Below, piece after piece: positions 6,604 to 32,381 of a stretch of DNA of 64,000 nucleotides. Under the pieces are notes generated by a model, which did no database searches, was not told the DNA's origin, and saw nothing but the letters and a program-made list of their open reading frames with translations. Each line of letters begins with the position of its first letter. Position 1 is the stretch's first letter. The DNA comes from an uncultured Acidibacter sp. GTDB taxonomy: Bacteria; Pseudomonadota; Gammaproteobacteria; Steroidobacterales; Steroidobacteraceae. The translations under genes were made by a program, and so were the position numbers. The stretch is from assembly GCA_964599335.1 (NCBI GenBank), contig CAZRFN010000001.1:12186-76185 (forward strand), given 5' to 3'.

Positions 6604-6618
6604 GATTTGTTCATCTCG

Positions 6619-6673
6619 TGTATAGCCTTAACCTGTACAGAAGCTTGACAGATTCCCACGCTCCTGTCATCCT
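6619..6673 (+). promoter_or_regulatory. candidate operator plus promoter upstream of the fasciclin gene
   Basis: Inverted repeat TGTATAG-N7-CTGTACA (6619-6639). -35 TTGACA (6645-6650), 17-nt spacer, TG-extended weak -10 CATCCT (6668-6673). Tandem 11-bp units aAccTgtACAg / aAgcTtgACAg (6630-6651). Confidence 0.45.
6646..6669. promoter_or_regulatory. inverted repeat TGACAG-N12-CTGTCA in the divergent intergenic region
   Basis: Perfect 6-bp arms read directly from the sequence. It overlaps the -35 box and spacer of the candidate promoter. Confidence 0.4.
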
Positions 6674-6741
6674 TCTTCTCGTCGAAACAAAGCGTACGCA
6701 GGAAAGCCGGTACGCCACAGAGCAACCAACGGAGTACTGCC

Positions 6742-7230
6742 ATGATTCGTTTCAACGCCAAGAACTTTGCCGCCGTCGCCCTTTTGGGCCTGGCGTCGGT
6801 CGCTGCCCAAGCCAACGGTTCGTCCACCGTCCTCGACGTCGCCAAGGAGAAGGGTAATTTCAGCACCCTCGCCAAGGCCATCGAAGCGGCGGGTCTCAAC
6901 GACGCCCTGACCGCCAACGGCCCGATCACCATTTTCGCCCCGACGGACGAAGCCTTCGCCAAGCTGCCCCCGGGTCAGCTCGAAGCCCTGCTCCGCCCTG
7001 AGAACAAGGACCAGCTCGTCAAGATCCTCACGAACCACGTGGTGCCGGGTAAGGCCCTCGAAGAGAACGATCTGAAGCGCACCCGCAGCGCCAAGACCGT
7101 CTCCGGTGACGACGTGAAGATCGAGCTCGTTCGCGGCCGCGTCCGTGTCGACGGTGCCCGCGTCTCGGGTGACTTCAACGCCACCAACGGCGTGGTCGTC
7201 GCCATCGACAGCGTCCTGCTGCCGAACTGA
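6742..7230 (+). CDS. fasciclin (FAS1) domain protein, secreted
   Basis: Signal peptide 'NFAAVALLGLASVAAQA'. 'LDVAKEKGNFSTLAKAIEAAGLNDALTANGPITIFAPTDEAFAKLP' and 'NGVVVAIDSVLLP' are typical FAS1 motifs. GGAG SD. Confidence 0.85.
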   Translation: MIRFNAKNFAAVALLGLASVAAQANGSSTVLDVAKEKGNFSTLAKAIEAAGLNDALTANGPITIFAPTDEAFAKLPPGQLEALLRPENKDQLVKILTNHVVPGKALEENDLKRTRSAKTVSGDDVKIELVRGRVRVDGARVSGDFNATNGVVVAIDSVLLPN

Positions 7231-7246
7231 TCGAATCATGAAGGAC

Positions 7247-7271
7247 ACGGCGTCCCCGTCCGGGGCGCCGT
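7247..7271 (+). terminator. GC-rich hairpin downstream of the fasciclin gene (possible terminator, no U-tract)
   Basis: ACGGCG(T)CCCC-GTCC-GGGGCGCCGT, a 10-bp stem with one bulge, 17 nt after the stop codon. Confidence 0.35.
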
Positions 7272-7319
7272 TCCGGACATGGATGTCCGGATGTATGGAA
7301 ACCCCCGTCCAAGGATGAT

Positions 7320-7356
7320 CCGGGTGGAGTGGACCGAAAGGTTCACTCCACCCCGG
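7320..7356 (+). other. long hairpin with GAAA tetraloop in the leader of the MetE-like gene
   Basis: CCGGGTGGAGTGGACC-GAAA-GGTTCACTCCA(C)CCCGG, about a 16-bp stem with one bulge. Flanked by further hairpins at 7273-7290 and 7357-7374. Confidence 0.5.
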
Positions 7357-7385
7357 ACGACGGTTGAGCGTCGTAAGATGCGCAG

Positions 7386-8402
7386 GTGTTTACCACCACT
7401 ACCGTAGGCAGCCTTCCCAAGCCGGACTGGCTGGCCGAACCCGAAAAACTCTGGCCCGAGTGGCGTCTCAAAGACGCTGAGTTGCAGCAAGGCAAAGAGC
7501 GCTCTGCGCTCGAATGGCTTCGCGAACAAGAAGCGGCCGGCATCGATGTCGTCGGTGACGGCGAGCAATTCCGCATCCACTTTGTCCATGGCTTCCTCGA
7601 GCAACTCGAGGGAATCGATTGGAATCGCAAGACCCGCATGGGCATCCGTAACAATCGTTACGAAGCCGACGTGCCCACGGTCACCGGACCCCTCTCGCGC
7701 CCTCGCCCAGTTCATGTCGCCGATGCGTCTTTCATGCGTCGGAATACCGAGCATCGACTGAAGATCACGTTGCCCGGCCCGATGACGATCTGCGACACCC
7801 TCGCCGATGGGTACTACGGCCGACGTGCCGACATGGCGATGCGTTTCGCTGAGCTGCTTAACGCAGAAGCTCGAGAAATCGAGGCGGCCGGCGCCGATGT
7901 GATCCAGTTCGATGAGCCCGCGTTCAACGTATTCCTAGAAGAAGTTCGTGACTGGGGACTACCGGCCCTCGAACGTGCCATGCAGGGTCTCAAAGCGACC
8001 ACGGTCGTACACATCTGCTACGGCTACGGAATCGAAGCGAATATTCGATGGAAGGAATCTCTAGGTAATCAGTGGCGGCAGTACGAACAGATCTTCCCGT
8101 GGATCAACCAAAGCAGCGTGAAACAGGTCTCGCTCGAGTTCGCCGGGTCGCGTATCCCTCACGAGGTGCTGCGTCTGTTGCCGGACAAAGAATTATTGGT
8201 CGGCGCGATCGAAGTGCTGCCAGGTAAGCTCGAAACCCCGGAAGAAGTCGCCCACAACATTCTCGAGGCCACACAGCACGTCGAGAAGTCGCGTCTTCTG
8301 CCTTGCACCAATTGCGGTATGGCGCCGCTTTCGGCTGAGCTCGCCCGCGGTAAATTACGCGCGCTGGGTGCCGGCGCGGCAATCGCGCGTAACCGCCTCT
8401 GA
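7386..8402 (+). CDS. cobalamin-independent methionine synthase (MetE C-terminal domain, COG0620) family protein
   Basis: 338 aa. 'TTTVGSLPKPDWL', 'VVGDGEQ', 'IQFDEPAF', 'VHICYG' and 'CTNCGM' (Zn ligand pattern His/Cys..Cys). GTG start. Confidence 0.8.
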   Translation: MFTTTTVGSLPKPDWLAEPEKLWPEWRLKDAELQQGKERSALEWLREQEAAGIDVVGDGEQFRIHFVHGFLEQLEGIDWNRKTRMGIRNNRYEADVPTVTGPLSRPRPVHVADASFMRRNTEHRLKITLPGPMTICDTLADGYYGRRADMAMRFAELLNAEAREIEAAGADVIQFDEPAFNVFLEEVRDWGLPALERAMQGLKATTVVHICYGYGIEANIRWKESLGNQWRQYEQIFPWINQSSVKQVSLEFAGSRIPHEVLRLLPDKELLVGAIEVLPGKLETPEEVAHNILEATQHVEKSRLLPCTNCGMAPLSAELARGKLRALGAGAAIARNRL

Positions 8403-14322: not shown

Positions 14323-14455
14323 ATCGAAATCCCCCCTTTCGTCAGTGGGCGCTTCGACGATAGCTGCGGCGGTTCGTTAAATGCCAAAACCTTCGTTTCA
14401 CATGGCCGACTGACGGAATCGGCAAACCGGGGTATCCTCGCGCCACGGGGGACCT

Positions 14456-15535
14456 ATGTTGAATGCAACCATAACGGGCTGGGGCAAATGCTTGCCACCG
14501 GCCGTGCTCAGCAACGCGGACATCGCGACCTTCCTCGAGACGACGGACGAGTGGATTACCTCTCGAACCGGAATCAAGGAAAGACGTATCTCGCACGTCT
14601 CGCTTGGCGACATGGCTCATGTTGCGGCGACCCGCGCACTCGCCTGCGCAGGTATCGAAGGCAAAGATCTCGATCTCATCGTCTTCGGCACGACAACCCA
14701 CGACGATCAATGCCCGAACATGGCATCAGGACTCCAAGCTCGCCTGGGGGCCGATGGTTGTGGTGCCATGGATGTCAACACCGCGTGCACGAGCTTTCTT
14801 TACGGTTTGTCTACCGCCGCAGCGATGATCAAAAGCGGAGTCGTCCGCAATGCGCTGGTCGTCGGCGGCGAACTGATCTCGCCTTACATGGACTGGGACG
14901 ATCGCAACGTATCGGTGCTTTTCGGCGACGGCTGCGCTGCAGTCGTCTTGCAAGCGACCGACAAAGACGAGGGCTTGCTGCTCGAAAAACTCGGATGCTA
15001 TGGCGAGTCACGCGAGATCCTTCGCATTCACGGCATCGGCGGCGCTTACGTTCATCAAGGCCGGATGCTCGGCTCCACCGAGTGGCAGTTCGAAGGCCAG
15101 GAGATCTTCAAGAAAGCCGTCAATGGCATGGGTCTTGCGAGCGAAGATGTCTTGAAGCGTTCGGGCTTCTCGGCGAATGACGTCCATCTGGCCGTCCCTC
15201 ATCAAGCTAATTTGCGCATCATCGAAGCCGTGGCCAAACGCGCCGGAATTCCAATGGACCGCGTTTACGTCAGCGTCAGTCGCTACGGCAACATGTCGGC
15301 TGCCACCGTACCCGTCGCTCTTTGCGAAGCTCTCGAAGACGGGCGAGTTCAGCCGGGCTCACTGCTGCTGATGCCAGCATTCGGCGGCGGGCTGACCTTT
15401 TGTGCGCATCTGTTGCGTTGGGGCCAGCGAACGACGCCCGTCTCGCAGAGTGACATCGAACTTCCGCCATCCGAACGATCGGCGCTCGAGATGGTGCAGC
15501 GTTATCGAACCTCAAAGGGACGGGGCTTGCGATGA
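14456..15535 (+). CDS. 3-oxoacyl-ACP synthase III (FabH/KAS III)-like condensing enzyme
   Basis: 'ITGWGKCLPPAVLSNADIATFLETTDEWITSRTGIKERR', 'NTACTSFLYGL' (active-site Cys), 'VPHQANLRI', 'GNMSAATVP'. Confidence 0.85.
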   Translation: MLNATITGWGKCLPPAVLSNADIATFLETTDEWITSRTGIKERRISHVSLGDMAHVAATRALACAGIEGKDLDLIVFGTTTHDDQCPNMASGLQARLGADGCGAMDVNTACTSFLYGLSTAAAMIKSGVVRNALVVGGELISPYMDWDDRNVSVLFGDGCAAVVLQATDKDEGLLLEKLGCYGESREILRIHGIGGAYVHQGRMLGSTEWQFEGQEIFKKAVNGMGLASEDVLKRSGFSANDVHLAVPHQANLRIIEAVAKRAGIPMDRVYVSVSRYGNMSAATVPVALCEALEDGRVQPGSLLLMPAFGGGLTFCAHLLRWGQRTTPVSQSDIELPPSERSALEMVQRYRTSKGRGLR

Positions 15536-19810: not shown

Positions 19811-21152
19811 CGAACTCTTCCGCGCTCGTCGGATGGATAGCGATGGTGTCGTCGAAGTCGCGTTTAGTCGCACCCATCTTCACGGCGACGGCGAACCCTT
19901 GAAGCATTTCGTCGGCGCCTGCGCCGATGACGTGACAGCCCACCACTCGTTGCTCGGGGCCCACCGTGACCAATTTCATTTCGGCACGCGGCTTGCGCGA
20001 TGTTAGGGCGTGATACATCGGCACGAACCCTGAAGTGTAGACCTTCAAAGATTCTGCGCCGTATCGATCTCGGGCTTCCTGTTCGCTGAGGCCCACCGTA
20101 CCGATCGGTGGGTGACTGAACACCACCGTCGGGATGTTCGAGTAATCGAGATGGCGCTCAGTCATGCCCCCGAAGACTCTGTCAGACAACCGACGTCCCG
20201 CGGCGATCGCCACAGGCGTCAACAAGGCGCGCCCCGTGACGTCCCCGATGGCATAGATGCCGCCGACGTTGGTTTGCTGAAATCGATCGACCGCGATGTG
20301 CCCGGAGTCATCCAGTTTCACGCCTGCACGATCGAGTCCGATCCCCTCGACCATCGGGTCACGACCGATAGCCCAGACGACGCAGTCGAACGCGCCGAGA
20401 GTGCGTCCATCTGCCGTAAGCACACGCAGACTGCCATCGGCATCGCGTTCGATCGCGCGAGGCGTGGCATTCGTTTCGATAACCGTGCCCTCATCACGCA
20501 TGATCTTCATGAGGGTGTCGCCGAGCATGCTGTCGAAGTGACGCAGCACATGCTCGTGGCGAATGACGAGCGAGACCCGACTACCGAGCGCCGCGAACAC
20601 CCCGGCAAGCTCGACGGCGATGTAACCGCTACCCACGACTGCGACTCGGTCGGGTTTTTTCTCGAGAGCGAAGAATCCGTCGGACGTAATCCCGAACTCT
20701 GCGCCCGGAATGGCGGGCACGGCGGGTCGACCTCCCGTTGCGATCACCACGTGCGGGGCCTCGAGTGCGTCGTCGTCGACCCTCACCTCGCCTACCGCAG
20801 TGAAGCGACCATGCCCTCGCAGAAGTTCGATTTTTTTGTTCGCGAGATTGCGTTCGTAGATGCCATTGAGTCGATGGATATAGGCCTCGCGCGACTCTCG
20901 AAGCGCACTCCAGTCATGACCGCGCAGTTCTAGATCGAAGCCGTAGTACGCCGCATCATGCGCCGCATGAGCGATCTGGGCGGCATTCCACATGACCTTT
21001 TTCGGAACGCAGCCGACGTTGACGCAGGTGCCCCCAAGTCGCGCAGACTCGACGAGCGCCACTTTGGCGCCGTATTCCGTCGCACGTTGAGCGCAGGCAA
21101 GCCCGCCACTGCCACCGCCGATCACCACCAGATCGAATTTTCTCGTCGTCAT
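19797..21152 (-). CDS. gor: glutathione-disulfide reductase
   Basis: '[47 protein letters not shown]' (redox-active CxxxxC) and C-terminal '[13 protein letters not shown]'. Start placed at ATG 21152. Confidence 0.9.
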
Positions 21153-21231
21153 GGCCGAATCGTACACGGCGTCCCGACCTCTTGCTGCGGGGAGCATGAC
21201 CGTTTCGTCATCCGTGCATTACCCTAGGGCC

Positions 21232-22011
21232 ATGACCAAGACCACCATCGCCACCTGGAACGTCAATTCCCTGAGGGTTCGACTCCCTCAACTTGCCGAA
21301 TGGCTCGCCACCGCGAAGCCCGACATCGTTGCTCTGCAGGAAACCAAGATCCCGGATCCCGATTTTCCGGCAGAAGAGATCGCCAATCTCGGATATGAAG
21401 TCGCCTACACCGGACAGCGCACGTACAACGGCGTCGCCATACTTTCCAAAAAACCGCTGAACGTCATCGCTACCGGCATTCCCGGATTCGAAGACGAGCA
21501 ACGAAGGGTGCTCGCCGCGGAGACCGACGGTCTCGTCGTGCTCGATCTCTATGTGCCAAACGGCCAGGAACCAGGCTCGGACAAGTACGCTTACAAACTC
21601 CGTTGGCTCGAGGCGCTCGACCACTGGCTGCGAAGCGCTTTGCTCAAAGATCGTGAGGTCGTCGTACTCGGTGACTTCAACATCGCACCGGAAGATCGTG
21701 ATGTGCATGATCCCGCCGCTTGGGTCGGAAGTGTGCATGTCAGCGAACCGGAGCGCGCCGCGTATCGAAAACTGCTCGACGCGGGGCTCGTCGATGTCTT
21801 CAGAAATTTTGATCAGCCCGAGAAGTCGTTCAGCTGGTGGGATTACCGCGCAGCCGCTTTCCGACGTAATCACGGACTGCGGATCGATCTGATCCTCGCG
21901 ACCACCGCCCTCGCAAAACGTTGCGTGGCCTCGCACATCGATCGCGAGCCGCGCCGCGCAGAGCGTCCCTCAGACCATACGCCGGTGGTCGCTGAGTTCC
22001 ACCGCGAATAA
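21232..22011 (+). CDS. xthA: exodeoxyribonuclease III
   Basis: 'IATWNVNSLRVRL', 'DIVALQETK', 'GDFNIAPEDRD', 'SDHTPVVAEF'. Start placed at ATG 21232. Confidence 0.9.
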   Translation: MTKTTIATWNVNSLRVRLPQLAEWLATAKPDIVALQETKIPDPDFPAEEIANLGYEVAYTGQRTYNGVAILSKKPLNVIATGIPGFEDEQRRVLAAETDGLVVLDLYVPNGQEPGSDKYAYKLRWLEALDHWLRSALLKDREVVVLGDFNIAPEDRDVHDPAAWVGSVHVSEPERAAYRKLLDAGLVDVFRNFDQPEKSFSWWDYRAAAFRRNHGLRIDLILATTALAKRCVASHIDREPRRAERPSDHTPVVAEFHRE

Positions 22012-22737
22012 GGCTGCAGACGCGGGCGCGACATGGGCCACGAAGCGATGGTGCAGCTCTTCGATACGCGCCAGCACGATCTCCCGACCGTCGATCGACG
22101 AAGACTCGATGGCGCGTGACAGGACCTCGGGGGTGAGTTGACTCAGGCACTGCGTCGCGAGGGGCGCAAAACTTAGATGCCAAGGCTCGGGGCTGACACC
22201 GCGGGGTTCTTCTCCTCCGGTCGGGGCCACGTACGGACGAAAAAAACCGAACCGATGCATGTGCGTATCAAGCCAGGCCGTGAGTGACGCAAAGGGCCCG
22301 TCGCTGGCGTATTCCTCGGGGACCAACTTCAACTGAGATCGCTCGGGCATCGCTGCAGCGTCGAAAACGTCGAAATCTGTGCCCCAATGGTGTCGGCTCG
22401 CACCCGGCAGCGCCGACCACAGAAGAATTGCATCGACTCGCTCCTCGGGCGAAAGCGACGCCGCATCCAACTGATTACCCGCTCGGTCGAGAATCGGGCG
22501 TTCGCCGCGAAATTTCCCGTTCCAGATCGCCAGCTGACGATCGAAATCCCTGAATGAGGACGCGGCTCGCAGATCGAGACCCTCCGTCTGCGCCGCCTCA
22601 CGCAAAGCGTGGAATGCAGGCATCACGTCTCTATGGAGGGTACAGCCGATATCCGTCGCTTCTACGACATGCGTACGACTCCGGCCAGTCAGTTCGAGTT
22701 CGCCGAGAAAGCCACGCAGAGGTTGCACGAGCCGCAT
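21970..22737 (-). CDS. M15 family metallopeptidase (D-alanyl-D-alanine carboxypeptidase/VanY-like)
   Basis: 'SSFRDFDRQLAIWNGKF', 'SRHHWGTDFDV'. The start is uncertain because ATG 22737 overlaps the divergent ABC-F ATG. Confidence 0.7.
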   Translation of the reverse strand: MRLVQPLRGFLGELELTGRSRTHVVEATDIGCTLHRDVMPAFHALREAAQTEGLDLRAASSFRDFDRQLAIWNGKFRGERPILDRAGNQLDAASLSPEERVDAILLWSALPGASRHHWGTDFDVFDAAAMPERSQLKLVPEEYASDGPFASLTAWLDTHMHRFGFFRPYVAPTGGEEPRGVSPEPWHLSFAPLATQCLSQLTPEVLSRAIESSSIDGREIVLARIEELHHRFVAHVAPASAALFAVELSDHRRMV

Positions 22738-24658
22738 GAGCGGCGAGCATACACGTACAATCGCGCCCGTGATTCATCTGCGCAATATTCAACTTCGACG
22801 CGGTCCCGAGCCCTTACTCGAGGACGTGTCGGTCAGCATCCTCCGCGGCGAAAAGGTCGGACTCGTCGGCCGGAATGGCTGTGGCAAATCTTCACTCTTG
22901 ACCTTACTGCGCGGAGAGCTCGCTCCCGACCGCGGCGAATTCGAGTTTCCCGGCAAACTTTCCGTAGCGTCGGTGGCGCAAGAGCTGCCGCACTCACAGC
23001 AACCGGTCATCGAACATGTCATCGATGGCGACGCCGCTCTGCGCGCCTGCGAGCTTGAGCTCGCCCAAGCGGAGCAATCGGACGATGGCATGCTTCACGC
23101 TAACCTGCTCGGTGAATACGATGCGCTGGGTGGATACACGGCTCGTACGCGAGCTGCCGAATTGCTCGATGGTCTTGGCTTCGACCCGGCCGCCATCGAT
23201 CGCCCCATCGCCGATTTTTCTGGCGGTATGCGCATGCGGGCAAATCTCGCGCGAGCACTCATGTGTCGCTCCGATTTGCTCTTGCTCGACGAGCCGACCA
23301 ATCACCTCGATCTCGATGCCGTGCTCTGGCTACAAGACTGGCTGCAGTCGTACCCGGGCACACTCATCCTCGTCTCGCACGATCGAGACTTTCTCGATGC
23401 CATCATCGGTCGCGTACTGCATATCTCGGCGAAGCGCATAGACAGTTACACCGGAAACTTCAGCGAGTTCGAAACTCAGCGACTGTCACGCCTTGCGCAG
23501 CAGCAAGCTGAAAACGATCGAATCAAGCGCGAGACCGAGCGCGTTCAAAGTTTCATTGATCGATTCCGCGCACAAGCCACTAAAGCCAGGCAGGCTCAAA
23601 GCCGTATCAAATGGCTGGAGCGACTTCCGGCACTCGTCACGCAACATGTCGATGCCGCGTACGACTGGGAATTCAAGCTACCGCGGAAGTTGCCTGCACC
23701 GCTCGTCGATCTCGACCAGATCAGCGCAGGATACGGCGATCGCACGATCATCGCCGGCGTAAAACTATCGATCGCGCCAGGCGCGCGGCTCGGTATCCTC
23801 GGCCGAAACGGCGCCGGCAAATCGACGCTAATGAAAACGATCGCTGGCGAACTCGAGCCGAAGACGGGCACGCGGACGGGCGCACCCGATCTCGAGACAG
23901 GTTTTTTTGCTCAGCTCGAGGTCGATCAGCTCGACGCCTCGAGCACAGCCATCCTCGAACTGACCCGTCGCGGCGGTCCCGAAGCTGCGGCTTGGGGAGA
24001 ACAGCAAAAGCGCGACCATCTCGGTCGATTCAACTTTTCGGGCGATCGCGTGTTCGAGCCGGTGGCGTCATTCTCGGGTGGTGAACGCGCGAGGTTATCG
24101 CTCGCCATTCTGGTAGCGCGACGACCCAATCTCTTGTTGCTCGATGAGCCCACCAACCATCTCGATCTTGAGATGCGCGATTCCCTACTCCTCGCCTTGC
24201 AGGAGTTCGAGGGCGCAGTGGTCGTCGTGTCGCACGATCGAGGGTTATTGAGCAGCGTCTGCGACGAATTCGTGCTCGTCGGTCACGGCGAGGTCATGCC
24301 TTTCGATGGCGACCTGGCTGATTACGCCAATTGGCTCTCGCGTCGATCACGTGCAGCGTCGACCTCTGGCAGTTCAGATTCGAATCAGGCGCCGTCGCGT
24401 AAGGAGCGAAAACGTCAGGAAGCCGAGGGCCGAAATGCGATCACGCCCCTTCGAACCGAGCTTCGAAAGGTGGAGAAAGATCTTGAGCGCCTCGGCAAAG
24501 AGCGACTGGAACTCGAACAACGGATGGCGGACCCCAAGGCTTATGCCTCGACCGATGCGGCGCTCGCGAAGTTGCCAGAGACACACGCCAAACTCTTGGG
24601 ACGGATCGCCTCGCTCGAGGAGCGATGGCTGGAGCTCAGCGAACGACTGTCGGGCTGA
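22736..24658 (+). CDS. ABC-F family ATPase (YheS/Uup-like, two ABC domains plus C-terminal coiled coil)
   Basis: Two Walker A motifs ('GRNGCGKSSLL', 'GRNGAGKSTLM'), two signatures ('FSGGMRMR', 'FSGGERAR') and no TM domain. An alternative in-frame GTG start lies at 22769. Confidence 0.9.
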   Translation: MSGEHTRTIAPVIHLRNIQLRRGPEPLLEDVSVSILRGEKVGLVGRNGCGKSSLLTLLRGELAPDRGEFEFPGKLSVASVAQELPHSQQPVIEHVIDGDAALRACELELAQAEQSDDGMLHANLLGEYDALGGYTARTRAAELLDGLGFDPAAIDRPIADFSGGMRMRANLARALMCRSDLLLLDEPTNHLDLDAVLWLQDWLQSYPGTLILVSHDRDFLDAIIGRVLHISAKRIDSYTGNFSEFETQRLSRLAQQQAENDRIKRETERVQSFIDRFRAQATKARQAQSRIKWLERLPALVTQHVDAAYDWEFKLPRKLPAPLVDLDQISAGYGDRTIIAGVKLSIAPGARLGILGRNGAGKSTLMKTIAGELEPKTGTRTGAPDLETGFFAQLEVDQLDASSTAILELTRRGGPEAAAWGEQQKRDHLGRFNFSGDRVFEPVASFSGGERARLSLAILVARRPNLLLLDEPTNHLDLEMRDSLLLALQEFEGAVVVVSHDRGLLSSVCDEFVLVGHGEVMPFDGDLADYANWLSRRSRAASTSGSSDSNQAPSRKERKRQEAEGRNAITPLRTELRKVEKDLERLGKERLELEQRMADPKAYASTDAALAKLPETHAKLLGRIASLEERWLELSERLSG

Positions 24659-24675
24659 GTGGAATATCTGACCCC

Positions 24676-24747
24676 AGAAAGAAAAATGGGCGGATCTTTC
24701 GATCCGCCCGAACGGGGGTCACTCGTCAGAAGGGACGGTTGACGAGC
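24676..24747 (-). ncRNA. candidate small RNA (about 65-70 nt), unannotated
   Basis: Lies between a near-consensus promoter (TTGACA-N16-TACAAT) and a Rho-independent terminator on the same strand, in a convergent intergenic gap. No ORF. C/U-rich loop and CCCCC single-stranded stretch. The TSS position is estimated, not observed. Confidence 0.4.
24688..24709 (-). terminator. Rho-independent terminator (minus-strand orientation)
   Basis: GGGCGGATC-GAAA-GATCCGCCC, a perfect 9-bp stem. Followed on the minus strand by ATTTTTCTTTCT (24687-24676). The plus-strand side lacks a T-tract. Confidence 0.65.
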
Positions 24748-24750
24748 ACA

Positions 24751-24805
24751 ATTGTACCGGCCGACCCGGGCCTGTCAAGCATTTGTATAGAACAAAAGCT
24801 GTACC
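24751..24805 (-). promoter_or_regulatory. sigma70-type promoter with upstream inverted repeat (candidate operator)
   Basis: Minus strand: GGTACAG-N8-CTATACA (24805-24784), 5 nt, TTGACA (24778-24773), 16 nt, TACAAT (24756-24751). Confidence 0.5.
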
Positions 24806-24859
24806 AATCAGGACACCTTCGAAACCGGAAGAATTGTCTTAAATATTAGACACTTATTG

Positions 24860-25099
24860 TTACAGTTTTTTGTGGGATCCGTCGCAAAGCGGCGCCTTGG
24901 CCGTGTGCTTGCAGCCGCAGAACCAGACCGTTCCGGTCTTGTCGGCGTCGTATTTCATCGGCGTGAAGGCCGAACCTTTGTGTGACCCGTCGCAGAAAGG
25001 CTGCTTGGCGGACTTGCCACAGGTGCACCACCAATAGGTTTTCCCCGTCTCGACATCCACGGCATACGGGGTTTTGCTGGCAATGACTGGATCGGACAT
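24860..25099 (-). CDS. CDGSH iron-sulfur domain protein (two CDGSH motifs)
   Basis: 79 aa from ATG 25099. 'CTCGKSAKQPFCDGSH' and 'CGCKHTAKAPLCDGSH'. The longer track ORF has a non-coding-like N-terminus. Confidence 0.85.
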   Translation of the reverse strand: MSDPVIASKTPYAVDVETGKTYWWCTCGKSAKQPFCDGSHKGSAFTPMKYDADKTGTVWFCGCKHTAKAPLCDGSHKKL

Positions 25100-25150
25100 G
25101 AGGGAAATTCCTGAAGTTAAACTGCCGCGCAGTCTATCCCGAGGCCTCGC

Positions 25151-26338
25151 ATGACCACCATTGGCACTCCCCGCAAACCTTCGGCCACACGCCTGATGCT
25201 GCTCGGCTCGGGAGAGCTTGGAAAAGAAGTCGCCATCGAAGCCCAGCGCCTCGGTCTCGAGGTGATCGCCGTCGATCGATATGCCGATGCACCGGCCATG
25301 CAGGTCGCGCATCGTGCTCACGTCATCCGCATGCTCGATCGATCCGCTTTGCGCGAACTCGTGTTGAAAGAGCAGCCCCAGTTCATCGTCCCGGAAATCG
25401 AAGCGATCGCCACCGAAGAATTACTCGCGCTCGAGGCGGAAGGGTTCAACGTCATCCCGACCGCACGCGCTGCGCGATTGACCATGGACCGCGAGGGTAT
25501 CCGACGTCTCGCCGCCGAAGAGTTGGGTCTACCCACCTCGCCTTACCGATTCGCTTCGACGCCCGACGAGTATCGAGCAGCCGTTACCGCTATCGGTATG
25601 CCTTGTGTCGTGAAGCCGGTGATGTCGAGTTCCGGAAAGGGCCAAAGCGTCATCAAGGAATCTGCCGATATCGATCGCGCCTGGGATTACGCACAAGCCG
25701 GCGGTCGCGCAGGTGCGGGCCGAGTGATCGTCGAAGGCTTCGTCGAGTTCGATTACGAAATCACGCTGCTAACGGTTCGCCATGCAGGCGGCACGTCGTT
25801 CTGCGAACCGATCGGCCATCTGCAAATCGCGGGTGACTATCGTGAGTCGTGGCAACCGCACCCGATGACAGACGCTGCGCTCAAAGAAAGCCAACGAATC
25901 GCCGAACGTGTTACCGCCGCCCTAGGCGGACGAGGCCTGTTCGGAGTTGAGCTTTTCGTGAAAGGCGATTCGGTGTGGTTCAGCGAGGTGTCACCCCGCC
26001 CTCACGATACCGGCATGGTCACGATGATTTCGCAGGACCTCTCGGAATTCGCGCTGCATCTGCGCGCCATTCTCGGGCTACCCATCCCGGTGATTCGTCA
26101 GTTCGGTCCGTCTGCATCGAGCGCGCTGCTCATCGAAGGCGACTCCGCTGACGCAAGTTTCAGCGGACTCGACGCGGCGCTCGCCGAGCCTGATACCTCA
26201 CTGCGACTTTTCGGAAAGCCCGAAGTGAGTGGTCAGCGACGGATGGGCGTCTCGCTCGCCAGAGCCGACTCGATCGATGCGGCACGTGCAAAGGCTCGAC
26301 GTGTCACCGAAATCGTGACGAAAGGCACCCGGCTTTAA
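25151..26338 (+). CDS. purT: formate-dependent phosphoribosylglycinamide formyltransferase
   Basis: '[44 protein letters not shown]', '[14 protein letters not shown]', '[15 protein letters not shown]'. Confidence 0.95.
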
Positions 26339-26346
26339 GGGTAGTC

Positions 26347-27276
26347 TCAGGCGTCGTCGCGCCAACGTCGCAAACGGATCGCCAGCAAAACGAATATCGC
26401 GGCGACCGCGAGCCCCGAGTAAAGATGCAGCTCGCCGAGCAATGATGCTGCGCTCATCCCTTCGTACGTATTCTTGATGGAATCGAAGATCACTTGCGAT
26501 CCGGCGCCCGTCTCGACGTTAAAGCCCATCGACGCCGCTTCGAAGTAATGCGTCAATCGATATCCGACGAGCTGGGAGACATGCTCCGTGTTGAAAATAA
26601 TCTCCTCGAAGAGCATCACGAGCGCCGGCGGCAGCACAGCCCAAAGAAACGGGGATCGCTTCGCCCAAACCGACACCAGTAGCAACCAGCCGGCGATGGG
26701 GGCGTACCACAGCGAAGCAATCAAAAGGTTCTGAAGAAGCGTCAACTGCAGAACGAACCAAGCGCCGAAATGAAACTGCCCGAGCGGTGCGATCGGTGTT
26801 CCTGCGACTTTTAAGGCGATGATCAGGAAGGTCAAAAGACCCATCACGAGCGACACGGCCCAAACCCATAGTGGTATGGCAACCATGGAGGTAAACAACT
26901 TGGAAAGCACCGTCGCCGAATCAGAGACCGGCATCGACTTCCAAAACAAGATACTGCGATCCTTGCGTTCGGCGTAGAGCGCATCGAGCAAATAGAAAAA
27001 TAGAACGATGATGGTGATGGCGAGTACGGGGAGCCCGAGGGATCCCATCCAGATACTGAAGAGCCTCGCTTGAGCGACTTCATCGGTCGCCAATCGGGCG
27101 AAGAACGCCGAGCTCTCGCCGTCGAGCTCGACATCGAATCGAATGCTTCCGGAGACATTCGAGCTGATGATCGCGGCGAGTACGATGAGCGCAGCCGTGA
27201 TGACGGGCACCCAGATCAGGCTACGATGCTCCCAGGTTTCCCGCTCGACCAGCGTGAAAAAAGACTTGGTGTTCAT
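26347..27276 (-). CDS. ABC transporter permease (ABC-2-like, multi-TM)
   Basis: 309 aa with about 6-7 hydrophobic helices. Start overlaps the stop of the upstream ATPase gene. Confidence 0.7.
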   Translation of the reverse strand: MNTKSFFTLVERETWEHRSLIWVPVITAALIVLAAIISSNVSGSIRFDVELDGESSAFFARLATDEVAQARLFSIWMGSLGLPVLAITIIVLFFYLLDALYAERKDRSILFWKSMPVSDSATVLSKLFTSMVAIPLWVWAVSLVMGLLTFLIIALKVAGTPIAPLGQFHFGAWFVLQLTLLQNLLIASLWYAPIAGWLLLVSVWAKRSPFLWAVLPPALVMLFEEIIFNTEHVSQLVGYRLTHYFEAASMGFNVETGAGSQVIFDSIKNTYEGMSAASLLGELHLYSGLAVAAIFVLLAIRLRRWRDDA

Positions 27277-28136
27277 GGCGCACTCCCGGCCATCTTTGCA
27301 ACGAAGAGATCAGCCACAGAAGGCGTTCGTATCTCGCCGAGCGCAGCAAGCTCGGCGGCCTCACGCCCCTCAAATACGAAGGCAGTGCGGCCGAAGACTT
27401 CACGTTCGTGAATCGGACCCAGCCGACGAGCGGCCTCACGCGAGTCGCCATTCGCGATCAACTGGACGAAGCGACTCGGGAGATCATCAATAGCGGAGTC
27501 GAGCACGATCCGGCCATGATTGATGAGCAGCACGTCGGTCAGCAAATGTTCTACTTCTTCGACTTGGTGCGTCGTGACGAGAATGGTGCGCTCGTGATCG
27601 AAGTAATCGTTGAGCAGAGCTTCGTAGAACGCCCTCCGATAGAGAAGATCGAGACCGAGCGTGGGTTCGTCGAGCACCAGCAACTTCGCATCGATCGCCA
27701 TGATGAGCGCGAGATGCAGTTGGGTGATCATGCCCTTCGAGAGCTCGCCGACTTTGCTTCGCCCACGAATTTCGGTGCGTGCCAATACGGCGTCGGCGCG
27801 CGCTCTGTCGAATCGGGGATGAACGCCTGCAACGTAGTCGATGGCGTCGTTCACACGCAGCCATTTGGGCAGCACCGCAACGTCTGCAATGAAACAGACG
27901 TCCTGCATCAGACTGTCGCGCTCGCGTCGCGGGTCGCGGCCGAGCACATTCAGGTGGCCCTCAAATGGCGTCAAACCGAGAATAGCCTTGAGGGCGGTGG
28001 TTTTTCCGGCGCCGTTCGGCCCCATGAGACCGACGATTCGGCCGCGCCCCACCGTGAAACTCGCGCCATCGAGTGCGACGGTCTGCTTTACGTAACGCTT
28101 GCGCAAATCTTTGGCGATGATGACTGCATCAGTCAT
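27273..28136 (-). CDS. ABC transporter ATP-binding protein
   Basis: 'GLMGPNGAGKTT' Walker A, 'LSKGMITQLHLA' signature, 'LLVLDEPTLGLD' Walker B. Start placed at ATG 28136 (ATGA overlap with the GntR stop). Confidence 0.9.
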   Translation of the reverse strand: MTDAVIIAKDLRKRYVKQTVALDGASFTVGRGRIVGLMGPNGAGKTTALKAILGLTPFEGHLNVLGRDPRRERDSLMQDVCFIADVAVLPKWLRVNDAIDYVAGVHPRFDRARADAVLARTEIRGRSKVGELSKGMITQLHLALIMAIDAKLLVLDEPTLGLDLLYRRAFYEALLNDYFDHERTILVTTHQVEEVEHLLTDVLLINHGRIVLDSAIDDLPSRFVQLIANGDSREAARRLGPIHEREVFGRTAFVFEGREAAELAALGEIRTPSVADLFVAKMAGSAP

Positions 28137-28492
28137 TTTTGTTTTCCTGTGGACATCAACTCGTCTACCGCGAAGCCCAACCTCTCGATCGTGGCTCGGG
28201 TACGTGGCCACTCGTCGCGAAGGAATCGGCCGCGCTCATCTTTGAGCAGGGTTTCGCGGGCTCCGGCGTTGACGAACATCCCTCGTCCTCGACGCTTCTC
28301 GACGAGCTGCTCGTCGGCGAGCTCCTGATAGGCCTTGAGGACAGTCAGCGGATTGATTCGAAACTCTGCCGCAACGTTACGTACGGAGGGCAAAGGGTCG
28401 CCCTCTTTCAATACGCCCTCGAGAATCATCGCCACCACACGATCGCGTAGTTGGCGATAAATCGGTGCGTTGTCAGTCCATTGCGGGTCCAT
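28133..28492 (-). CDS. GntR family transcriptional regulator (YtrA subfamily, short)
   Basis: 'PIYRQLRDRVVAMILEGVLKEGDPLPSVRNVAAEFRINPLTVLKAYQELADEQLVEKRRGRGMFV'. 119 aa, typical YtrA size and ABC context. Confidence 0.9.
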   Translation of the reverse strand: MDPQWTDNAPIYRQLRDRVVAMILEGVLKEGDPLPSVRNVAAEFRINPLTVLKAYQELADEQLVEKRRGRGMFVNAGARETLLKDERGRFLRDEWPRTRATIERLGFAVDELMSTGKQK

Positions 28493-28518
28493 TCACGACG
28501 CTCCGAGGGTCCAGGCGA

Positions 28519-28644
28519 TTAAAGGGCGCCGGAAGCCTCGATCAGACCCCAGAAAAAACTGAGGGTCAGCGCAATGGCGATCAAGGCGGCGGCGACGATC
28601 GGGGCTAAATCCGGGGAAACCTGATTGATGGGGCATGTGCTCAC
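28519..28644 (-). CDS. small hydrophobic peptide (41 aa), not in the ORF track
   Basis: GTG 28644 is preceded by AGGAGG with 7-nt spacing. Translation is MSTCPINQVSPDLAPIVAAALIAIALTLSFFWGLIEASGAL, with one TM helix. Stop lies 26 nt upstream of the gntR start. Confidence 0.5.
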   Translation of the reverse strand: MSTCPINQVSPDLAPIVAAALIAIALTLSFFWGLIEASGAL

Positions 28645-28669
28645 GTTACTTCCTCCTGAACATTCCTTC

Positions 28670-28695
28670 TAGTGTTATATATAACTAAAACACTA
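28670..28695. promoter_or_regulatory. AT-rich inverted repeat TAGTGTT-N12-AACACTA (candidate YtrA/GntR operator)
   Basis: Perfect 7-bp arms around ATATATAACTAA, in the divergent region between the peptide-gntR-ABC operon and mdh. This is the most AT-rich spot in this part of the window. Confidence 0.5.
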
Positions 28696-28793
28696 AAACG
28701 GAGTCAAGGGGAACTTGAACATCCTCTCTCCCGAGGGGCGATACCGTAGAATTCGCGCGCGAAAAATAACTCGTTTCCCCGGAGACTCTCGAG

Positions 28794-29774
28794 ATGAAGC
28801 AGCCTTTGAATGTCGCCATTACGGGCGCCGCTGGCCAGATCGGCTACGCCCTCGCCTTCCGTGTCGCCTCGGGAGCCATGCTTGGCCCCGACCAGCCGGT
28901 CAACTTGCACCTTCTCGAGATCACACCGGCTCTCCCGACCCTGCAGGGTGTGGTGATGGAACTCAACGACTGCGCTTTCCCGACGCTCAACAAAGTCATC
29001 GCGACCGATGATGCGCGGGTTGCGTTCAAGGACTGTCATGCGGCTCTGCTCGTCGGCGCCCGCCCGCGCGGACCCGGCATGGAGCGCAAGGACCTGCTTC
29101 TGGCCAATGCACAGATCTTCTCTGCTCAGGGCAAGGCCCTGAACGACGTAGCCGCCCGCGATATTCGCGTGCTCGTCGTCGGAAACCCCGCGAATACCAA
29201 CGCGTTGATCGCCATGAAGAATGCACCATCGCTCAAGCCTCAGAGCTTCACGGCGATGACGCGTCTCGATCACAACCGCGCCTTGTCGCAGTTGGCCGAG
29301 AAAACCGGCAATCACGTGAACGACATCCAGAAAATGATCATCTGGGGAAACCACTCGGCGACCCAGTATCCCGACATCAATCACTGCTTCGTCAAAGGCC
29401 AGCCCGCTCGCAGCCTCGTCGATGCCGAGTGGATCGAGAAAACCTTCATCCCCACCGTGCAGCAGCGCGGTGCGGCCATCATCAAGGCGCGCGGCGCCTC
29501 GTCGGCGGCCTCAGCGGGCTCTGCCGCCATCGATCACATCCGTGACTGGTTCCGCGGATCGGCTCAGGGTGACTGGGTGTCGATGGGCATCCCCTCCGAC
29601 GGTAGCTACGGCATCCCCGAGGGCGTGATCTATTCGTACCCGGTGGTCTGTCGAGGCGGTCAGTACGAAATCGTGCAAGGCCTCGCCATCGACGAATTCA
29701 GTCGCAAACGCATGGATGCCACCCACCAGGAACTCCTGGAGGAGCGCGACGGGGTGAAAGACCTGCTGGGTTGA
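28794..29774 (+). CDS. mdh: malate dehydrogenase
   Basis: '[27 protein letters not shown]', '[10 protein letters not shown]', '[12 protein letters not shown]'. 326 aa. Confidence 0.95.
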
Positions 29775-29834
29775 TCTCGGGCGGCGTGACGTCGCTCTTT
29801 AAAGAGGGATTGGGCATGCAGTAGTCTTCTCTGC

Positions 29835-32381
29835 ATGACCCACATCCTCATCGCCCTCGCCCTGCTGGTCCTCGCCGGACTGGCCCTGACGCTCAAGGGC
29901 GGCGTCATCGCGATCCTTTTCGTCACGGCTTTGCTCTATCTCGCCTACAAGAGACTGAGCTTACTCGCCTACACCGTCACCTTCGGTGTGCTGCTCGTCG
30001 CTTATTCGGCGATCGGCGAGCCCGCAGGCCTCTGGAAAGGATTTCTTTGGTTGCTGTTTGCGGGTCTCGTGCTGCTCAACATCGCGCCGCTACGTCAAAA
30101 GTGGGTGACGCGTCCGTTCATGAAGATCTACCGGCGAATGCTGCCGGCCATGTCGTCCACTGAACGCGAAGCACTCGAAGCCGGCACGGTATGGTGGGAC
30201 GGCGAACTCTTCACAGGCAAACCGAACTGGCCGAAGTTGCTCGGCGCCAAGGCGCCGAAGCTTACCGCCGAAGAACAGGCGTTCCTCGATGGCCCGTGCG
30301 AAGAACTCTGTCGCATGATCGACGACTTCGACATCACGCATCGTCGCGGCGACATGCCGCCCGAAGTGTGGGACTTCCTCAAACGCAACGGCTTCTTCGC
30401 GATGATCATCGCAAAGAAATATGGCGGCCTAGAGTTCTCGGCGTATGCGCACTCCTGTGTTCTCGCCAAACTTTCGAGTCGCAGTGCCGTCGTGTCATCG
30501 ACCGTCGCGGTACCGAATTCCCTGGGTCCAGGCGAACTCTTGCAGCACTACGGCACCGACGAGCAGAAAAACTATTACCTGCCGAGGCTCGCGAGTGGCG
30601 AAGACATCCCCTGTTTTGCACTGACGGGGCCGCGCGCAGGTTCCGATGCTGCTTCGCTCCCGGACTCCGGCGTCGTATGCCGAGGGATGTGGCAAGGCCG
30701 CGAAATCATTGGCCTGAAACTCAATTTTTCGAAGCGTTACATCACGCTTGCACCGGTGGCCACGGTCATCGGCTTGGCATTTCGGATGTTTGATCCGGAA
30801 CGTCTGCTCGGTAGCACCACGGACATCGGCATCACTTGCGCGTTGATCCCGCGGGAAACCCCGGGCATCAGCATCGGACGTCGTCACTTCCCGCTCAACG
30901 TGCCTTTCCAAAACGGCCCCATCAAAGGCACGGACGTGTTCGTTCCTCTCGACTACATCATCGGCGGTACGAAGATGGCGGGCCAAGGCTGGCGGATGCT
31001 CGTCGAGCAACTCTCTGTCGGTCGCTGCATTTCGCTGCCCTCTAGCGGCACTGGCGGTGGCAAGGCCGCCGTCTTTGCAACGGGTGCCTACGCGCGTGTC
31101 CGTCGGCAATTCAACATGCCCGTCGGCAAGTTCGAAGGCGTCGAGAGCGTACTCGCCAAGATGGTGGGGCTCACCTACACCATGGATGCGGCGCGCTCGG
31201 TTACTGCGGGCGCCATCGATGGGGGCGAGCGGCCATCTGTGCCGTCGGCGATGCTGAAGTATCACGTCACCGAAATGAGCCGACAGATCGCTAACGATGC
31301 CATGGACATCCATGGCGGCAAGGGCATCTGCCTCGGCCCTCGCAATTACCTCGGTCGTGGCTATCAGGTCGTACCCGTTGCCATCACTGTCGAGGGCGCA
31401 AACATCCTGACACGCAGCCTCATCATCTTCGGTCAAGGTGCGATCCGCTGTCATCCGTTTGTGCTCAAAGAAATGGAGGCTGCCCGCAACCCTAACCGCT
31501 CACAGGGCGTGAAAGATTTTGATAGCGCCTTGTTTGGGCACGTCGGGTTCACCCTGAGCAACGCGGTGCGCTCACTCGTGATGGCGATGACGAATGCTCG
31601 CTTCACGGCAGCCCCGGTCGAGGGGCCCGTCGCGCGTTACTACCAACACATCGTGCGCTTTTCGGCGAGCTTTGCTTTTGCCGTGGACGTCGCGATGTTG
31701 AGCCTGGGCGGCTACCTTAAAAAGAAGGAAAACCTTTCCGCGAGACTGGGTGATGTGCTCTCTTGCATGTATCTCGCCTCGATGGTCCTCAAGCATTACG
31801 AGAACCAGGGTCGTCGCGCCGAAGATTTTCCGCTCGTCGAGTGGGCCTGTCGCAATCTCCTCTACAAGGCGCAAGAGCAGTTGCACGGGTTCCTTCGCAA
31901 CTTCCCCAACCGTTTCCTCGCGGGCGTGATGCGCCTGATGATTTTCCCGCGGGGTTTGCAGTACTCGGCACCCGATGACCGACTCGGTCGCAAGCTCTCC
32001 GAACTCGTACTGGCACCTACCGACGTGCGAGACCGTCTCTGCTATCCCGTCTATCGGCGCATCGAAGCCGGGAATGCGCTCGGCTTGTTGCAAGAGGTAT
32101 TGGAGATGGCCGAACGCGCCGAATCCCTCGAGAAGCGACTGCGTGTCGAGGGCGTCAAAACAGGGCGCATCTCCGCGCTCGATCTGCCGAGTCAGATCGA
32201 CGAGGGCGAGAGCGGTGGACTGCTCTCGGCCGAAGAGGCGGCGTGGCTGCGGGCTTACGACCGCAAAGTCATGGAACTCATCAACGTCGATGACTTCGCG
32301 CCTCACGAGCTCGGGACTAACGGTAAACCGCGTCCGCGCATCGATCTGCCGACTCAGGAACAAGCCGAACTGTTCGTGTGA
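29835..32381 (+). CDS. fadE: acyl-CoA dehydrogenase FadE (large, N-terminal membrane segment)
   Basis: 848 aa. N-terminal hydrophobic helices, 'FALTGPRAGSDA', 'GWRMLVEQLSVGR', 'ITVEGANILTRSLIIFGQGAIRCHP'. Confidence 0.9.
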   Translation: MTHILIALALLVLAGLALTLKGGVIAILFVTALLYLAYKRLSLLAYTVTFGVLLVAYSAIGEPAGLWKGFLWLLFAGLVLLNIAPLRQKWVTRPFMKIYRRMLPAMSSTEREALEAGTVWWDGELFTGKPNWPKLLGAKAPKLTAEEQAFLDGPCEELCRMIDDFDITHRRGDMPPEVWDFLKRNGFFAMIIAKKYGGLEFSAYAHSCVLAKLSSRSAVVSSTVAVPNSLGPGELLQHYGTDEQKNYYLPRLASGEDIPCFALTGPRAGSDAASLPDSGVVCRGMWQGREIIGLKLNFSKRYITLAPVATVIGLAFRMFDPERLLGSTTDIGITCALIPRETPGISIGRRHFPLNVPFQNGPIKGTDVFVPLDYIIGGTKMAGQGWRMLVEQLSVGRCISLPSSGTGGGKAAVFATGAYARVRRQFNMPVGKFEGVESVLAKMVGLTYTMDAARSVTAGAIDGGERPSVPSAMLKYHVTEMSRQIANDAMDIHGGKGICLGPRNYLGRGYQVVPVAITVEGANILTRSLIIFGQGAIRCHPFVLKEMEAARNPNRSQGVKDFDSALFGHVGFTLSNAVRSLVMAMTNARFTAAPVEGPVARYYQHIVRFSASFAFAVDVAMLSLGGYLKKKENLSARLGDVLSCMYLASMVLKHYENQGRRAEDFPLVEWACRNLLYKAQEQLHGFLRNFPNRFLAGVMRLMIFPRGLQYSAPDDRLGRKLSELVLAPTDVRDRLCYPVYRRIEAGNALGLLQEVLEMAERAESLEKRLRVEGVKTGRISALDLPSQIDEGESGGLLSAEEAAWLRAYDRKVMELINVDDFAPHELGTNGKPRPRIDLPTQEQAELFV

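Follow-up and report, generated by a model that had tools for sequence, protein, structure and literature searches.

The 64,000-nucleotide (nt) stretch of uncultured Acidibacter DNA analysed here (the window) contains what is very probably a real small RNA (sRNA) gene, located in the 201-bp gap enclosed by the convergent stop codons of an ABC-F gene and a CDGSH gene. Comparison with related sequences points to an autonomous gene for an RNA of about 65 nt, whose promoter would be controlled by light through LitR, a regulator of the CarH/LitR type, and whose product would act in trans by base pairing. We assign this overall reading a probability of roughly 55%. An earlier note on this DNA had proposed an autonomous promoter-to-terminator unit in the gap. 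Every sequence feature it described was located where it had placed it, and the proposal is strongly supported by the promoter geometry, an invariant RNA body, an interchangeable upstream gene, and the lack of an Rfam match. What that note overlooked is a repeat array upstream of the -35 hexamer that is common to the sRNA promoter and the CarH/LitR locus. The elements of the sRNA locus are as follows.

22736-24658, plus strand: ABC-F open reading frame (ORF), Pfam-supported.
Stop codon at 24860, minus strand: CDGSH ORF, Pfam-supported.
24784-24815, both strands: array of TnnACA repeats in 11-bp phase that resembles an operator and precedes the -35 hexamer.
24773-24778, minus strand: -35 hexamer TTGACA, found by the promoter scan, which doubles as the promoter-proximal TnnACA direct repeat.
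24751-24756, minus strand: -10 hexamer TACAAT (TAGAAT or TAAACT in most relatives).
24678-24744, minus strand: predicted sRNA of about 65 nt, (C)GUCAACCGUCCCUUCUGACGAGUGACCCCCGUUCGGGCGGAUCGAAAGAUCCGCCCAUUUUUCUUU, starting at 24744 or 24743, with its 3' end inside the U-tract.
24724-24743, minus strand: 5' stem-loop of the predicted fold, with the CU-rich loop CCCUUCU (24734-24728).
24710-24723, minus strand: single-stranded linker AGUGACCCCCGUUC with a 5C motif at 24718-24714, the proposed seed, unpaired in the minimum-free-energy and consensus folds.
24688-24709, minus strand: intrinsic terminator with a 9-bp stem, GGGCGGAUC/GAUCCGCCC, a GAAA loop, and a U-tract at 24687-24678.

A promoter scan of positions 20000-30000 returned a single promoter-like match, which is the near-consensus sigma70 promoter that had been reported on the minus strand (11/12, 16-nt spacer). 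The best terminator-like site in the same 10-kb stretch is the sRNA terminator, which on the minus strand reads GGGCGGATC-GAAA-GATCCGCCC followed by ATTTTTCTTT. In the direction of ABC-F (plus strand) the hairpin is followed by GAACGGGGG, confirming that the T-tract is confined to the minus orientation. The case that this arrangement exceeds chance rests on phylogenetic footprinting rather than on a single-sequence match.

Related loci were collected in three sets. Comparison of the ABC-F protein with species-representative genomes gave L001-L009 (87-94% amino acid identity), ABC-F homologues of 62-83% identity together with their contigs gave L017-L026, and a single DNA-pattern scan of metagenome contigs gave L027-L084. 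The protein-anchored set comprises 18 loci with ABC-F identities of 62-94% and is unbiased regarding the RNA. About 75 related loci (ABC-F 57-100% identical) each have a single copy of the module, in convergent orientation to ABC-F. The module adjoins the ABC-F stop codon in 18 of the 18 protein-anchored loci, and the conservation in relatives that the earlier note had proposed as a check was found. The 57-nt body of the RNA is 100% identical to that of the window in 13 of these loci and 86-98% identical in the remainder. Complete identity persists down to an ABC-F protein identity of 73%, where the neighboring 900 nt of ABC-F DNA are 70-71% identical; among loci with an identical 57-nt core, the 3' DNA of ABC-F is just 70-88% identical. 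The promoter spacer agrees at only 4-15 of 16 positions in the protein-anchored loci.

Of the 56 unique promoters compared, 54 have TTGACA as their -35 hexamer, 50 have a 16-nt spacer, and 54 have a distance of 6 nt from the -10 hexamer to the first invariant base. The -10 hexamer conforms to TAnnnT in nearly all of them (TAGAAT 21 times, TAAACT 13 times). Because the hexamers and their geometry are kept while the spacer is free to change, and because the invariant block begins at the expected +1, we infer a working promoter and transcript. The features of the sRNA are under purifying selection. A covariance model (R1) detects exactly one copy per locus, scoring 81-100 bits; it finds no copy in Polaromonas, Aeromicrobium, or other distant ABC-F loci, and a second match in L065 (16 bits) was judged not real. 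The window itself comes from a freshwater member of the Steroidobacteraceae (Gammaproteobacteria). By these comparisons, the RNA gene occurs throughout the freshwater Steroidobacteraceae and appears specific to that family. As a separate observation, contigs L034, L055, L057, L069, L072, and L074 start or stop within about 100 nt of the sRNA; an ultra-conserved sequence common to co-occurring strains probably breaks assemblies at this point.

The surroundings of the module bear on whether it is a gene in its own right. The locus could be the 3' untranslated region (3'UTR) and terminator of the upstream operon, either CDGSH or Mla-like, with a fortuitous promoter match. Indeed, the terminator scan showed no other strong terminator between the CDGSH stop codon and 24709, and CDGSH transcripts therefore probably end at the sRNA terminator as well. 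However, the module stays constant from locus to locus even where another gene lies upstream of it. CDGSH lies directly upstream of the module in the window's clade, L017, L031, and L082, whereas most lineages carry a CDGSH-MlaE-MlaF-MlaD-aux operon at this position, which is probably the ancestral state. Different upstream genes occupy the position in L025, L027, L038, and L064. L017 and L018 encode identical ABC-F proteins, yet the whole Mla-like operon is present in only one of them. The sequence from the upstream stop codon to the operator is not conserved among the compared loci, whereas the -35 and -10 hexamers, the spacer length, and the distance to the invariant block are kept while the spacer sequence drifts. 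Because the upstream gene is interchangeable and the intervening sequence is unconserved, the module is best regarded as self-contained, which upholds the earlier claim that the transcript is more than CDGSH read-through. Such read-through to the terminator probably adds to the independent transcript and does not replace it. We consider a mere 3'UTR very improbable.

Enterobacterial DapZ and MicL are sRNAs from mRNA 3' regions that have their own promoter and share the terminator of the upstream mRNA. The present RNA resembles this type in lying just downstream of a same-strand operon with its own promoter and a terminator that is probably shared with the upstream transcript. It differs in that its promoter is intergenic rather than within the upstream coding sequence and in that the upstream gene is interchangeable. 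On the same flank, MlaE-MlaF-MlaD-ABC_trans_aux forms a presence/absence polymorphism between CDGSH and the sRNA (L017 versus L018, 5923-9882), and the window's clade (24745-24860) is without this operon. Directly after the CDGSH stop codon lies an AT-rich inverted repeat, TGTCT-TAAATATT-AGACA (24836-24853), which the window's clade keeps as CTTAAATAT. This repeat may terminate CDGSH transcription weakly, or it may be bound by a protein.

The invariant block of the RNA starts at 24744, the seventh nucleotide after the -10 hexamer. Base 24744 is C, G, or A in divergent members, and base 24743 is G (A in L038) and thus a purine in all variants. Because invariance begins at 24744 and 24743 is always a purine, transcription probably starts at one of these two positions. 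The inverted repeat CTCGTCA/TGACGAG (24746-24722, minus strand) had been read as a 7-bp hairpin. The repeat is present, but its outer two pairs (24746-24745) are unconserved, being broken in L002, L003, L004, and L007, and they lie upstream of the proposed start. The caveat attached to that hairpin, that part of it may precede the transcription start site, was correct. ViennaRNA folds the 5' portion into GUCA/UGAC plus CGUC/GACG with the loop CCUUCU, and the predicted fold of the sRNA has an energy of -28.7 kcal/mol (z = -4.8).

Variation among the 24 distinct bodies falls mostly in the first 16 nt. The 5' loop reads CCCUUC, GCUAUC, CCUAGC, CCCGUC, or UCCUUC, and it varies in L025, L027, L028, L038, and L064. 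The linker and its 5C motif show no change in any of the 18 protein-anchored loci, not even in L025, the most divergent of them. Two C-rich stretches had been put forward as seeds; only the second, GACCCCCGUU, is invariant in the protein-anchored set, while the first (the CCCUUC loop) changes in L025 and L027. Across 16 variants, the only departure in the terminator stem is a single mismatch in L007, whereas its loop appears as GAAA, GCAA, GAGA, CAGC, or CACAA. The L007 change (around 5940-5960), a single observation, converts GATCC to GACCC and produces an A-C mismatch on the sRNA strand and a G-U pair on the ABC-F strand. An unpaired seed together with a 3' U-tail terminator gives the predicted fold an Hfq-type layout.

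The locus might instead encode a tiny protein, and two short ORFs can be read in the window here: one of 18 codons (ATG at 24687, plus strand) and one of 7 codons (GTG at 24749, minus strand). Most relatives lack this ATG and GTG (L006 and L008, for example, have AAAAAGGGCGG), and neither ORF has a ribosome-binding site. We therefore give this explanation almost no credence. The previous statement that the transcript has no start codon or Shine-Dalgarno sequence overlooked these ORFs, but it stands insofar as their start codons are unconserved and a ribosome-binding site is absent.

No Rfam 15 family matched any part of the window at its gathering threshold. At the locus, with E <= 10, matches were at chance level only; the best, suhB/mmgR (RF00519), scored 14.9 bits (E = 1.5) where its gathering threshold is 41, in keeping with the suggested novelty. 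A scan for tRNA and tmRNA found nothing, and literature string searches for the seed sequence returned nothing relevant. A hammerhead-like resemblance (CUGANGA...GAAA) was rejected because the helices misfit and Rfam gave no match. Like suhB/MmgR (alpha-r8, RF00519), the present RNA combines a hairpin at its 5' end, whose loop is of the CUUCU type, with a C-rich linker that stays unpaired and a U-tail terminator. Unlike it, suhB/MmgR is alphaproteobacterial, carries a CUCCC motif, and has another synteny; the present RNA falls below its gathering threshold and is thus no member. By sequence, the sRNA represents an undescribed RNA family with a familiar architecture.

In comparing the upstream regions of the promoters, we noticed an array of repeats. 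On the sense strand, the box TATACA (24789-24784) combines with the -35 hexamer into TATACA-aatgc-TTGACA. On the opposite strand lie AGAACA (24789-24794), TGTACC (24800-24805), and AGGACA (24810-24815), spaced 10-11 bp apart. The most conserved upstream bases are ACAAATGC, abutting TTGACA, with further TGTNCA boxes beyond, and the ACA at -8 to -6 from the -35 hexamer is invariant in 55 of 55 unique promoters. The array can also be read as a palindrome, GCATTTGT-N5-ACAAAAGC (24779-24799). We rejected a role of this palindrome as an RNA hairpin or terminator: the apparently compensatory changes GG/CC in L007 and GTCCAG/CTGGAC in L006 fit half-site drift better, and drift in a repeat operator is preferred because of the wider diversity of promoters. 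The array is not known to fit the box of LexA, Fur/Zur, OxyR, NsrR, TyrR, Pho, or mar.

The pattern TnnACA-N5-TnnACA occurs four times in the whole window when both strands are considered: at the sRNA promoter, at a fasciclin promoter (TGTACA-gaagc-TTGACA), and at two overlapping sites in the litR-sense direction (TATACA-N5-TGAACA-N5-TGAACA). In the 747 kb made up of the window and the related loci, TGTNCA-N4-5-TGTNCA has 27 matches, of which 25 lie at most 120 nt upstream of the sRNA, one is such a site on the other strand, and one is in the litR region. The litR gene, about 18 kb from the sRNA promoter, and the site beside it are the following.

5665-6603, minus strand: CarH/LitR-type regulator gene (312 amino acids) with MerR helix-turn-helix and B12-binding domains.
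6597-6650, plus strand: second operator of the same design, TGTTCA-N5-TGTTCA-N5-TGTATA ... TGTACA-N5-TTGACA.

The litR product matches MerR_1 (PF13411, 9e-17), B12-binding_2 (PF02607, 2e-13), and B12-binding (PF02310, 2.5e-8), all above cut-offs, and its best PDB matches, Thermus LitR (3WHP) and CarH (5C8D), extend over both domains at about 3e-30. It carries the motifs that bind adenosylcobalamin (AdoCbl), WHRGEVSIAQEH (Wx9EH) and ERHELG (ExHxxG), which align with 3WHP; the stretches WHRGE..A.EH and GERHE.G are conserved in this alignment. Homologues are labelled "light-induced transcriptional regulator" by JGI.

The second operator occupies the divergent promoter region between litR (5665-6603, minus strand) and the fasciclin gene (6742-7230, plus strand). 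Its design is kept beside litR homologues of 66-83% identity in L085-L088, and L088 has CTATACAAATGCTTGAC, identical to the sRNA promoter. The litR-fasciclin-Meth_synt_2-SDR-Amdase cluster is syntenic at these homologues. By our own reading rather than tool output, the boxes of both promoters, counted from the first T of the -35 hexamer, lie at 0 and -11 in sense and at about -22 to -27 and -32 to -37 in antisense. The operator design is thus common to the sRNA promoter and the litR locus.

CarH operators consist of 3-5 tandem 11-bp repeats, nnnnTnnACAn, with the -35 hexamer TTGACA inside one repeat (PMC9304148). An oligomer of AdoCbl-bound CarH sits on the operator in the dark and leaves it in the light (PMC9304148). 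At the sRNA promoter, the repeats follow this consensus and one of them overlaps the -35 hexamer, as TTGACA is itself TnnACA. The present system is like the CarH/LitR regulons of Thermus, Bacillus megaterium, and Myxococcales (PMC9304148) in its 11-bp TnnACA repeats with the -35 hexamer within one of them; in its regulator with a MerR helix-turn-helix, a Wx9EH helical bundle, and an ExHxxG Rossmann B12 domain; and in the proximity of the regulator gene to a promoter of the putative light regulon. It differs in that the known targets are protein-coding, chiefly carotenoid genes (PMC9304148), and in that two sense and two or three antisense repeats take the place of 3-5 same-strand tandem repeats. 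Our literature searches returned no paper describing a LitR- or CarH-controlled sRNA. We consider control of the sRNA promoter by LitR and light somewhat better supported than not.

The departure from characterised CarH operators, with boxes on two strands (2 + 2-3), raises the question of whether the RNA is real but independent of LitR. In that case the boxes would be bound by another regulator, which would also govern litR and fasciclin, or would be UP-like, and the signal sensed through the RNA would be something other than light. Response regulators of the OmpR/PhoB type, too, typically use direct repeats with an 11-bp phase. Against such a regulator, the motif fits the CarH consensus, down to the -35 hexamer embedded in a repeat; the sole other instance in the 747 kb abuts the CarH/LitR gene and is conserved there; and among the compared loci no other regulator gene is conserved beside either site. 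We regard control by another regulator as unlikely, although it is the most serious of the alternatives considered here.

The neighborhood of litR offers two further observations. In a conserved cluster found in the window (5665-8402) and in L085-L088, the genes for fasciclin, Meth_synt_2 (B12-independent, methionine-synthase-like), SDR, and Amdase run divergently from litR; placing a B12-independent enzyme under a sensor based on B12 photolysis would be physiologically sensible. The gap between fasciclin and Meth_synt_2 (7300-7385, plus strand) contains GGTGGAGTGGACCGAAAGGTTCACTCCACC, which forms a strong hairpin, and ahead of it GTCCAAGGATGATCCGG, a sequence that L085 has too. The region has no Rfam match. 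It could function as an attenuator or terminator, or be a leader of an undescribed kind.

These features suggest a model in which the near-consensus sigma70 promoter would start the RNA at 24744 or 24743 and transcription would end at the terminator (24709-24688). The TnnACA array, with two sense repeats including the -35 hexamer and two or three on the opposite strand, would be the operator of the LitR encoded at 5665-6603. In the dark, a B12-bound LitR oligomer would occlude the -35 hexamer. In the light, photolysis of the cofactor would release the repressor, the strong promoter would fire, and the RNA of about 65 nt would accumulate. A near-consensus promoter is expected for a repressor-controlled gene, and we count it in favor of the model. 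The sRNA would then act in trans, its single-stranded GACCCCCGUU pairing with G-rich ribosome-binding regions and repressing translation; the CU-rich loop possibly aids pairing, and the U-tail of the terminator could be a handle for a chaperone.

The closest working analogue is sX13 of Xanthomonas, whose 4C/5C motifs repress mRNAs with G-rich motifs near the start codon or ribosome-binding region (PMC3771888). Like the present RNA, sX13 of the Xanthomonadaceae is family-restricted, highly conserved, and syntenic with variable flanks (PMC3771888). It exposes 4C/5C motifs in a GC-rich gammaproteobacterium; in the present RNA, the 5C run is unpaired and invariant. The two differ in that sX13 measures 115 nt and has three stem-loops with C-runs in apical loops, whereas the present RNA measures about 65 nt and has one 5' stem-loop plus terminator, with the 5C motif in the linker. 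Moreover, sX13 lies downstream of polA and only in Xanthomonadaceae, whereas the present RNA lies beside ABC-F in Steroidobacteraceae. The RNAs were set apart by the published description of length, fold, and location (PMC3771888). We put the odds that the present RNA pairs in trans through its 5C run at about even.

Several points weigh against the combined reading. The sRNA promoter has only two in-phase sense repeats, the other two or three being on the opposite strand, whereas the studied CarH operators have 3-4 same-strand tandem repeats and the litR-proximal site has three in tandem. In the window's clade, two of the distal boxes are degenerate (TGTACC, AGGACA), and the boxes are assigned to LitR by adjacency and motif match. 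The compensatory changes that the earlier note had suggested seeking in relatives were not seen: two alternative 5' folds gave 0 compensatory pairs in a sequence that barely varies, and the argument for the structure is therefore a thermodynamic one. As the metagenome scan demanded the seed sequence, the invariance of the seed is unbiased only in the 18 protein-anchored loci. Seed k-mer matches in the window are as frequent as expected by chance, and so is exact complementarity of at least 9 nt. A 13-nt match inside an MFS gene (17958, minus strand, codons 16-21) is not conserved in five homologues, and pairing with the start regions of ABC-F, CDGSH, MlaE, MlaF, MlaD, and aux does not exceed background. 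Finally, the RNA is invariant from end to end, even in its terminator stem, which is unusual for an sRNA acting purely by seed pairing and exceeds what seed pairing needs; protein binding or a second constraint could account for it, and it may leave room for a protein-binding or ABC-F antisense role.

In other target searches, duplex energies over the whole window were uninformative in this GC-rich DNA, and a 9-mer complementarity upstream of the Meth_synt_2 gene is not conserved. We also observed that a fabH-like gene (14455-15535; region 14415-14470 of the window) has the ribosome-binding site ACGGGGG, with GAACGGGGGC in L038 (1-30). This site could pair with 7-9 nt of the invariant stretch in the sRNA by complementarity, which makes it a target lead only, as ribosome-binding sites with G-runs are common here.

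The extent of the invariance could reflect an RNA that binds a protein, or serves as a sponge, with a protein or RNA partner that reads most of the molecule. Such a partner would explain why 57 nt, with the terminator stem among them, are invariant across lineages that share only about 70% protein identity. Compensatory change normally lets terminator stems drift, but there is none here, and no conserved mRNA target was found in our searches. On the other hand, protein-binding motifs such as GGA are not repeated in the loops, variation does occur in the 5' loop, and the combination of 5' stem-loop, C-rich linker, and U-tail terminator is the standard architecture of pairing sRNAs. We judge a role of this kind improbable.

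A role in cis is prompted by the downstream flank. The module is always convergent to the downstream gene, and its linkage to ABC-F persists in about 70 loci while the opposite flank was repeatedly rearranged. The RNA might act mainly as an antisense to ABC-F, through transcriptional interference or processing of the mRNA 3' end. Read-through ABC-F transcripts would be perfectly complementary to the sRNA, and such read-through is plausible given that no U-tract follows the hairpin in that direction. In L025 (5955-6020), and apparently in L027/L075 and L064, the called ABC-F ORF even extends antisense through the sRNA terminator. However, most loci have a gap of 120-170 nt and no such overlap. 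In L082 and L072 the convergent gene is an Exo_endo_phos nuclease rather than ABC-F, and the sRNA is intact. A cis role also leaves unexplained the invariance of the whole body and the seed-like unpaired C-run. We consider it about as improbable as the protein-binding role, and pairing in trans remains our preferred account.

Some details of this flank are of separate interest. The L025 ABC-F C-terminus reads ...EKGGSLDPPERGSLVS, where the conserved part is the RNA sequence and not the protein end. L082 (2793-3754) and L072 represent one lineage, with a CDGSH of 72% identity and an XthA-like Exo_endo_phos gene convergent with the sRNA. The start region of ABC-F (window 22696-22755; L001-L026, around 3960-4020) is without an obvious Shine-Dalgarno sequence. 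A conserved GAGCATACACG lies just past the ABC-F ATG in most loci and upstream of the called GTG in L020 and L024; because its position relative to the called start differs, the start calls are inconsistent between contigs.

The sRNA gene thus defines a new RNA family, 57 nt of which do not vary between genera that share about 70% protein identity. Its carriers are an abundant group of lake bacteria dominated by uncultured members. The prediction it offers is concrete: a specific RNA of about 65 nt, a defined operator, and a defined regulator. The compact promoter and operator with their tiny transcript could serve as a light-switchable part for RNA expression. If the operator assignment is true, light sensing by CarH/LitR reaches post-transcriptional control, beyond transcriptional control of a few photoprotection genes. 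It is tempting to speculate, at slightly less than even odds, that this locus is the first small-RNA arm of the CarH/LitR B12-photoreceptor regulon: an ultra-conserved riboregulator derepressed by light that, in abundant freshwater heterotrophs (Steroidobacteraceae), would reprogram the translation of mRNAs with G-rich ribosome-binding sites at dawn, with the fasciclin/methionine-synthase-like operon co-regulated.

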